Origin: Intoshia linei
Taxonomy: Eukaryota > Animalia > Orthonectida
Direction: 5' to 3'
NCBI GenBank assembly: GCA_001642005.1
Contig: LWCA01000005.1
Location: 48,588 to 112,587, forward strand
Length of the DNA stretch: 64,000 bases
Below the pieces are notes generated by a model. That model did not search any database, was not told the origin of the DNA, and was given only the letters and a program-made list of their open reading frames with translations. Positions within the stretch are counted from its first letter, which is position 1. Each line of letters starts with the position of its first letter. The position numbers and the translations under genes are program-made. This document shows, one piece after another, positions 55,001 to 58,000 of this stretch.

Positions 55001-58000
55001 CGATTAAGCCATTCAAGTTATCAGAAATAAAGACTTTTTCTAGTTTATCAATACATCCTAGAGCCTTAGTTTTCATCATACGCAGGGAATTCATCTGTGA
55101 CTTTTCCATTATTTTCCACAAGATTTATCACTATTTGATAAAACGTATGTTCTAGAATTAGAAAAACAGGTGTCTCATCACAATTATAAATGTCCAGAGG
55201 ACTATATTTTTCTTCTTTACTTCTAAAAAAATCTGAAAAAGCTTCAAATTCACTTGTATCAACAAAACCTGCTTCATCACTAATAACACTACTGCTATAG
55301 TTGGATTTTTGGTTACTGCAAGTCGGATTTTAGCTGAAGTTAAAGAACTTGAAAGGATAGTATAACCTGGCCGCCTAGGTGTGGCTAAATGCACTAAAAA
55401 CTTTTCGGTATTCGAATCATACATGCATGGCATTAATGCCATTTTTGGTCAAAAGCTCTTTCTTATCTTTATCACCCCTAAAAGGGTGGTAAATGTCTTT
55501 AGTATTATAATAATATATATTGCCCGTAGGTTTCCTTCCACAGTTAGAAATTGAGTAAGGATTGTAGACACATGCTTTCAAATTAGTGTAAATGTGCTTT
55601 ATGACGAGCCCTCACGTTGAAGCTGCTAACGCGTGTGAATGCCCTGGATTGTTTTCAACCACAGAGTTTGTGTCAAATCTACTTAATGTATTACGAAGAT
55701 CTCTTCTCATCTTCTTTTTAAACCTAAAAGTGACGGTTTACGTCCTTTTAGACTCGGTACTAACTGTTGCTTTGGTTAGATGAAGACGTAACCACCAGAG
55801 TGTCTGCAAACCACAATACTCTCTGAGTTGCCATTTCTTACTCACGGCGTTGTTGTTCTTTACTAACTTTCTTTTATTCAAAATAAAATGCATATACAGT
55901 CTAAGTCCATATTAACGGAATTAATTATTTTTTAATTATTAAATAGAACATCTTAAAATAGATAATTTTTTTGTTATTATTGGTTGAATGAAAGACCATA
56001 AAGTTGTATATATGGGATACGATGTCAAATTTGAAAAATTCATTTAATTTTAATTTGTAAAAAAAATTGAAAGCCTTCCATGATATTAAATAAAATATTT
56101 ATTAAAGCTTAATCGAAATCAATGAACTGTTTAAATCTTTATTATATTACAATATCTAATTAATTTTATATTATTTTTCTATCTTGCTAAAATATTCCCA
56201 TATTTTAGTTTGTTTTTTTTTATTAGCGATTTGAATGTGAATCTTTGTTTCAATAGAATAAATATCATTTACAGCATTAGGACAAATTTTTGTTGTCATT
56301 ATTTTAATTTCTTCAAGTAAAATTATAATTAAATATAGAATTGAGATTATGTATATATTCAGAGAAAATGGTTTTTGTCATCCAAGCTTTTTTACTGCTT
56401 TTGTAAAAAAAAGGTTGATTATTTAAATTTATTTTACTCAAGCATCTAAGTTTTATGCTTTTACCTATAAACAAAGGTTTAATTTTTTCACCTTGAGTAC
56501 TACAGCACAATAATACCGTGATTTTCTCCTTATTCTCTTTCAACTTCCTCCTAGGATCATCACTCTTTATGATATAGCTTTTATTCGGTAATTTTTTATA
56601 GAACAAAGCAGTTTCATCTGCATTAAATACGTCTTTTAAATCATATTCGATGATTTTATTATTGAATTTAGTGAAAAAATCATCAATGTCTGACTGATTT
56701 TCTTCCTGTTTTGTGCCAGAAAGAGATTTATATGTAATTTCGTGACGTTTTTTAAAATTTATCAACCAACCGTCACTTGCTTTGAAATTTTCCCTGTGAC
56801 TACCATTACTATTATTTATAAGTATTGCTTGTTCTTTCAAAATAATACCACTTAATGGAATATTATTTTCCCTTAATTTTGATAATGATGTTATTAATGT
56901 TTGATCAAAATTTTTTCTTTTATTATTTATCCTTACAACATCATTATTTAATCCATTAAATATATTTTCATTGAAAGCAATTATAATATTTTGTTCATTT
57001 TTTTTTATGTCACTAACGGTAGATGATGAGAGCTTATACTTATCACAAATATAGCTTTGTTTGAACTTTTTTAAATCATCCAAAATCTTTTTTTTAACAC
57101 ATAATATTTTTTTTCTTTTTAGTTTTGAATTCATTTTTTGAATGATAATAAAATTTATAAATGTCAATATAGATGAAGTTGATATTAAAATGATATTGGA
57201 TAACTTAAAATTTATGATTAATTAACAATTAAGCTTTATATTTAATTTTTTTTATTAACGGAATTTTTGTTTCATACAAAATTGTTAACAAGAAAATCGA
57301 TTCCGTTATAGTGGAATTCCGTTAAGATAAGTTCCGTTATAATGGACTTAGACTGTATAAAATTCAAAAACTTGTATAAAAATACTATCGTGTGACAGCT
57401 TAGTAGTGTTCTGTACGATGACTTCACAGATGGTGATCAAAGATTTTAATTTAAAAACAATGTTTACAACGATATTTTAATTCTTGTATTCTTTGTTACT
57501 AGAATAATTGTTATCACCATGATCACTTTAGATTCAACTTAACAACTATTTACATTACAATTACAACAGATGCATAGAAAAATTTTAGAACAGATTCGAA
57601 AATTTTATTTAATTTCTATTCATTAATATATACAATAAACCTGTCATCCTATTTTTCATAATTTTGATGAATTTGGAATTAAAAATATCATTTTTCATTT
57701 CTGAAGGGATATCCATTGTAATATTTAATGTAATTATCTAATCTAAAAAAATACAATTTTGTGTTAAAAATAATTAAAAAATATTCTGCGTTAAAATATA
57801 AACAATTGGTATACATTAGCTTTAAATTCTAGTCACTAACTAATAGATAAAAGTAAATAAGAATTGAAATTATTGTAATTTAATATAATAAGTTCGAAGC
57901 TATAGGTCTGATTAGCCAAAATATTAAAAGCCTTAATAGTCATCAAATCAACTATAGATCTGATTTGCTTTGAAATTATTTCGTAACTCACTTTTAAAGG

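Follow-up and report, generated by a model that had tools for sequence, protein, structure and literature searches.

The closest described counterpart of the locus reported here is eBxnv-1, an endogenous nodavirus-like element of the nematode Bursaphelenchus xylophilus (PMC5177903, in the part of the text available, as for the particulars that follow). The two are alike in being single-copy, apparently derived from RNA1, lodged in an invertebrate genome and distant from known exogenous viruses. eBxnv-1 is an intact, expressed polymerase frame of 570 aa within a Bel/Pao LTR element, whereas the present insert amounts to about 130 codons of a broken capping domain, runs antisense to a host gene within an intron, and has DNA transposons and no retroelement at its flanks. 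A second point of comparison comes from the host itself, the orthonectid Intoshia linei, since a viral-family RdRP gene has been noted in its predicted proteome (PMC6396948, in its accessible portions); this gene likewise has an RNA virus as its source, in the same species, but it encodes a polymerase rather than a capping domain. The capture of viral sequence by the I. linei genome is therefore not new in itself. Neither the family nor the locus of that polymerase gene is given in the portions of PMC6396948 and its seven supplements that were searched, and nothing on the insert was found in the available parts of PMC11097642, PMC12147562 and PMC10101049. No report of a noda-like virus or element of orthonectids was found in the open-licence literature, where the I. 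linei genome paper was not among the matches.

The insert is a non-retroviral endogenous viral element, as seen from its viral homology, its host junctions, its depth equal to that of the host, its breakage and its sharing between samples. It is probably a decayed piece of a noda-like capping gene, present in one copy, antisense to BTBD10 within an intron that also holds DNA-transposon remains, copied by a host reverse transcriptase in an old infection and now inert. The features of the locus are listed below, in positions of the window, i.e. the whole stretch of 64,000 nucleotides that was analysed.

50391..59851, plus strand: BTBD10/KCTD20 gene, 5' start not mapped.
50502/50537, 50635/54128, 54255/54295, 54392/58169, 58269/59424, 59534/59583 and 59638/59679, plus strand: exon joints of BTBD10/KCTD20, from contigs.
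54393..58168, plus strand: BTBD10/KCTD20 intron of 3776 nt (GT..AG) holding the insert and transposon pieces.
55069..55289, minus strand: second Tigger-like transposase remnant, multi-copy, covering the region of the first DDE aspartate and abutting the insert end.
55290..55467, minus strand: tail of the insert, GC 37.6%, single-copy, including a CATG tandem repeat at 55422-55429.
55468..55851, minus strand: matched core of the insert, decayed 5' portion of a noda-like protein A.
55897..57355, minus strand: pogo/Tigger-type DNA transposon with terminal inverted repeats, internally truncated.

The insert stands out first by its composition. The GC-rich island at 55293-55870 has 38.1% GC against 26.8% for the whole window, a value reached by 0.04% of all 578-bp stretches, with the maximum of the window starting at 55271. 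Over 128 codons the viral minus-strand frame holds two stops and the other five frames hold 7-16. The peptides quoted in the earlier note are all present in minus-strand translations, and the CAC codon at 55635-55633, the TGA at 55614-55612 and the CATG tandem repeat were each found where that note had placed them. The viral span of 55293-55870 that it claimed stands for about 55851-55468, where the match is significant, and does not for the remainder. The core contains the first half of the RNA capping domain and the helix region upstream of it, about 128 codons with two in-frame stops. No second copy of the insert was found within the 64-kb window, the range in which other copies were searched.

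The nodaviral origin of the core is carried by profile searches that agree with one another and exceed their controls by far. A comparison of the repaired peptide with the nodaviral methyltransferase HMM, which the earlier note had proposed, gave the expected family: with X at the stops, the frame matches Noda_Vmethyltr (PF19222) at E 1.7e-6, over profile positions 3-71 of 148, with 28.2 bits, a score below the curated cut-off of 30, and this is the sole Pfam family matched at E<=1. An independent set of 120 noda-like contigs was fetched by a polymerase motif, without use of the insert; the motif lies within an open frame in all 120, and the 47 contigs long enough to include the N-terminal part were made into a profile. 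Against the 852 six-frame pieces of the window, this 47-virus profile gave a single match, at 55764-55459 on the minus strand (20.7 bits, E 7.5e-6), while the runner-up had an E of 1.7 and the reversed-window control reached at most 1.3 bits. A larger profile of 163 proteins, from which the insert was left out, is partly biased because 109 of its proteins were fetched using an alignment that contained the insert; it matched the insert with 31.7 bits (range 29.6-31.7) and E 3.6e-9, the match ending at 55468. In a shuffle control, the peptide scored 30.8 bits, none of 500 shuffles scored as high, and the top shuffle reached 4.7. When 169 viral proteins were searched by tblastn at E<=0.05, 11 of the 13 matches fell on the insert. 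Single-sequence searches returned no virus, the host's own gene model being alone among 1.84 billion representatives and among 71 candidates, and a profile search for a polymerase piece found none in the window. Taken with the lack of any rival family or protein among these searches, the three concordant profiles make it almost certain that the insert derives, as first proposed, from a noda-like protein A and its capping domain.

In Flock House virus and alphavirus capping enzymes, H93, R100, D141 and W215 are the four residues held in common (PMC6165433, in its available part). The residue numbering of Flock House virus can be transferred to the insert because a profile built from the insert and eight near relatives finds Flock House virus protein A (PDB 8FM9) at E 1e-23. 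The sites that follow from this transfer, together with the second stop, are these:

55495..55497, minus strand: Asp in the D141 column, as in 158 of 158 relatives that have a residue at that position.
55612..55614, minus strand: in-frame stop TGA in the R100 column, which is Arg in 148 of 148 relatives that have a residue at that position.
55633..55635, minus strand: His in the H93 column, as in 147 of 147 relatives that have a residue at that position.
55740-55738, minus strand: second in-frame stop, TAA, upstream of the capping motifs.

The assignment of the His and the stop to the H93 and R100 columns, made in the earlier note from the sequence, thus agrees with the alignment. The W215 column lies beyond the end of the insert's match, two further invariant Asp columns downstream are unmatched, and the second half of the capping domain, from the D-x-D-Y-Y motif to the W215 column, is absent from the match, which stops at position 71 of 148. 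Judged by its sequence, the insert is a fragment of the PF19222 capping domain and no full member of the family. The Arg of the R100 column is missing, so the gene is counted as broken, and it can no longer serve as a capping enzyme.

The relatives of the insert are all distant. Its identity is 35% over 60 aa to protein A of Beihai shrimp virus 6, 24% over 72 aa to that of Hubei diptera virus 16, and 26-34% to five further noda-like proteins (P0020, P0026, P0015, P0013 and P0024). With the unclassified noda-like protein A sequences the insert shares H-x-H at the catalytic His, Y-x-P-Y-x-x-S, G and K-D, at unchanged spacing. The alphanodaviruses Flock House virus and Nodamura virus have a homologous capping domain, of which the insert keeps the H93 and D141 columns, and Nodamura virus protein A (L012) is more distant, at 21.5% identity. 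In a quick capping-domain tree of 144 rows and 121 columns, from which duplicates and rows of fewer than 70 residues were omitted, the insert is a long unplaced branch with no clear sister group; it falls outside a well-supported 52-row clade that contains Nodamura virus. The insert has no nucleotide likeness to the 120 noda-like viral contigs, and sequence searches found no close living virus, the viruses of I. linei being hardly sampled. A metagenome locus (L121) was rejected as a chance match of 22 residues in an unrelated frame. The insert likely represents the 5' part of RNA1, because the His sits 12-226 residues from the first Met in the 28 near relatives where this distance can be counted, some of them partial.

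The tail of the insert is less clear. Its last ~175 bp have no significant match to noda-like proteins and score about 0 bits alone. In six tests against shuffled tails, 711, 712, 309, 605, 585 and 21 of 1000 shuffles equalled the real tail, so that one of the six fell under 5% (21/1000), by a margin of 0.3 bit. The aligner can place the tail along the remainder of the capping domain, and since it has the same GC, is single-copy and can be aligned in this way, the tail is likely viral by continuity. The earlier note had explained a frameshift by duplication of CATG; the tandem repeat is present at 55422-55429, and the viral frame after it is not significant in the shuffle tests. With no significant match in the tail the frameshift account is unsupported, and it stays at the level of the possible. 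An internal deletion of the defective-RNA type, suggested by a likeness of the far tail to a later protein A motif, was dropped at about 0 bits.

The host gene is defined by contigs from four sequencing runs, X1 to X4. Seven GT..AG introns are skipped by the contigs of X2-X4 and unskipped in the DNA run X1, from which it is inferred that the X2-X4 contigs derive from spliced RNA. The joint 54392-58169 is seen in contigs of X2, X3 and X4 and absent from X1, and because these contigs skip 54393-58168 of a plus-strand gene, the insert is intronic and antisense. The antisense position in an intron of a BTBD10-family gene, noticed earlier from the sequence, is thus borne out by a GT..AG joint in three of the four runs.

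The endogenous status of the insert is likewise upheld by the contigs, in which it is joined to host DNA, has single-copy depth and is identical in two studies. In X1, which may be the source of the assembly, one contig spans 55230-55922 with 0 differences and bridges both insert junctions, at a depth of 14.2 against 10-12 for the unique flanks. The insert is thus DNA at host depth and, with its two stops, is broken, unlike a contaminating live virus. X2 and X4, which come from another study than X1, have contigs at 55360-55972 and 55300-55477, respectively, with 0 differences each, and the former bridges the junction to the pogo end. Three of the four runs, from two studies, therefore share the insert as long pieces with 0 differences; X3 has no long piece over it among the listed contigs, a hole that proves nothing. 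Constraint could account for this agreement of the two studies, and so could low diversity. Since the contigs show neither strand nor level, pre-mRNA and carried-over DNA are both candidates for the X2 piece.

Its antisense position raises the question of whether the insert still has a function. EVEs that serve as piRNA sources in Aedes mosquitoes are for the most part found in piRNA clusters, close to LTR elements, and can resemble a circulating virus closely. The insert is like them (PMC7522710 being an example) in being a non-retroviral fragment, antisense to a transcript, in a transposon-rich patch; unlike them, it has no demonstrated piRNA cluster or LTR setting, and searches brought up no close circulating virus. 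By analogy, the insert might be a kept immune template, with BTBD10 transcription yielding virus-complementary RNA that would be processed by PIWI into piRNAs directed at a related virus. The antisense position and the absence of differences between studies over 613 nt speak for such a role, as does the equipment of the animal, for which the accessible text of PMC6468455 lists one PIWI-like protein, a Dicer, an Argonaute and HENN-1. Elsewhere, primary piRNAs come from an endogenous RNA virus in a mollusc (PMC6085071), and antisense insertions in host transcripts can initiate piRNA immunity in flies (PMC13226689), according to the parts of both papers that are available. The fly cases, however, are 3' UTR (exonic) or cluster insertions, whereas the insert is spliced out. 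Antisense orientation has a prior of one in two and is common to the transposon pieces of the same intron, the searches yielded no virus alike at the nucleotide level, no eukaryotic RdRP appears in the available list for I. linei (PMC6468455), and earthworms are described, in the portion of PMC6085071 at hand, as being without canonical viral small RNAs. On balance, a small-RNA role would be unlikely, and an immune template improbable. The same low probability attaches to a bolder form of the idea, an intron-borne antisense memory in which BTBD10 pre-mRNA would feed piRNAs against an unseen virus of orthonectids or their worm hosts, and in which the viral polymerase gene of the genome would come from the same virus. 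It is similarly doubtful that one of the most reduced animal parasites would have kept such a memory with a single PIWI protein.

The preferred reading, an inert fragment within the BTBD10 intron, depends on the assembly for the place of the insert, because both flanks are repeats and no contig linking the insert to a BTBD10 exon is among those listed. A true endogenous viral piece could thus have been misplaced by the assembly and sit between similar transposon copies elsewhere in the genome, as both flanks are multi-copy and the listed contigs break there (54722-55023, 55230-55922 and 57845-60500 in X1). The local Tigger-like copy, however, is unlike the other copies in the X3 and X4 contigs, by 18 letters and 10 gaps over 221 nt, and was therefore easier for an assembler to place. 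As weak hints in the same direction, the depth of the X2 insert contig (6.5) resembles that of other intron pieces of BTBD10 (5.4-9.7), and no contig fills the bin past the gene in this run, from which the spliced BTBD10 contig also comes. A misplacement is accordingly unlikely.

The fragment lies between two pieces of DNA transposons. The pogo element has TA on either side (55895-96 and 57356-57), its open frame at 57221-56313 encodes HTH_Tnp_Tc5 and the first third of DDE_1, and about 45 bp separate its end from the point where the viral match starts. On the other side, the other genomic copies of the Tigger-like remnant cease matching at 55289; this remnant has no Pfam match, and its local score of 55 against the neighbouring transposase was equalled by 1 of 2000 shuffles. 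No reverse transcriptase was found among the 95 longer open frames of the window, a search that short decayed remnants could escape, and no LTR or LINE retroelement encloses the insert. The insert lacks a target-site duplication, the two junction zones share no direct repeat of >=6 nt, no second terminal-repeat pair surrounds the insert, and Rfam families are absent from the intron.

The public gene model A3Q56_00142 (57134-55069, minus strand) runs through all three pieces; neither this model nor the two transposon pieces figure in the earlier note. It has 281 aa, is filed as an HTH psq-type protein, and is composed of the N-terminus of the pogo transposase, 36 viral residues with the His among them, and the Tigger-like remnant. 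Part of the insert would then be a used exon of a minus-strand chimeric transposase-virus gene, a reading to which the existence of the model and the shared orientation of its three pieces lend some weight and which is nonetheless very unlikely, as the model is named hypothetical and sits in a singleton cluster, and the 15 joints listed, of 72 in the four runs, include none of the model's. Fragments of three unrelated broken elements joined in this way are a typical gene-prediction artefact, and the present analysis flags A3Q56_00142 as a probable one.

Least credible, and already largely refuted, is the view that the likeness is due to chance or that the DNA derives from a cellular or transposon gene: identity is just 24-35% over 60-85 residues, the Pfam score is under the cut-off and a low-confidence fold model (pLDDT 53) has no match at E<=0.001 in PDB or BFVD, but the three profile tests are concordant with controls far lower, the invariant columns and their spacing are kept, and no better match to a cellular or transposon protein turned up.

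For the preferred reading, a viral fragment copied into DNA and since decayed, the following course of events may be proposed. Nodaviruses have no DNA stage and no reverse transcriptase (PMC5177903, in its available part), and because none is found at the locus either, the cDNA was likely made in trans. In an old germline infection, the 5' region of the viral RNA1 would have been reverse-transcribed by a retroelement elsewhere in the genome, and the cDNA would have been patched into a break inside or beside the Tigger-like copy, leaving no target-site duplication. The intact-ended pogo element would have arrived after it. The insert would then have persisted because it is removed with the intron by splicing, and it would be decaying meanwhile, with its composition drifting towards that of the AT-rich host. 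The GC of the insert, 38%, lies between that of the host (27%) and the viral median (51%, viral range 38-61%).

The insert is of interest chiefly because it records that an orthonectid was exposed to a virus: it is evidence taken directly from the genome that a noda-like virus with plus-strand RNA entered the germline of such an animal. Pieces that consist of a capping domain alone would escape polymerase-based surveys. The insert also offers a probe for the lineage of the source virus, and with it one could ask at little cost whether antisense viral pieces in introns give rise to piRNAs in animals other than arthropods.

Some further observations concern the host gene and its repeats. BTBD10/KCTD20 mixes introns of 34-48 nt with repeat-filled ones of 1.2-3.8 kb, and seems to be split in the public annotation, where A3Q56_00143 covers its last 167 aa alone. 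The nearest non-self match is a 397-aa BTBD10 protein (P0124), with 68% on the last exon, whose locus might come from a related worm. In the intron of the insert, an X2 contig joins 56102 to 57237, which likely reflects a version of the pogo element at another genomic site that was shortened by deletion, and a 191-nt X3 contig at 57527-57717 has a depth of 64.8, far over its surroundings, which suggests a repeat or a small separate transcript. A Tc3/Tc1-like element occupies 50996-52292 in the preceding BTBD10 intron; its inverted repeats are perfect over 22 nt, and on the minus strand it retains traces of a transposase HTH. Contigs of all four runs skip 50990/50996-52290, and the element may be absent from some alleles or copies. 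A larger decayed element, with ends near 50800 and 53150 that resemble inverted repeats by eye, seemingly surrounds the Tc3-like one at 50800-53160, and contigs of X2 and X4 skip 50871-53077.
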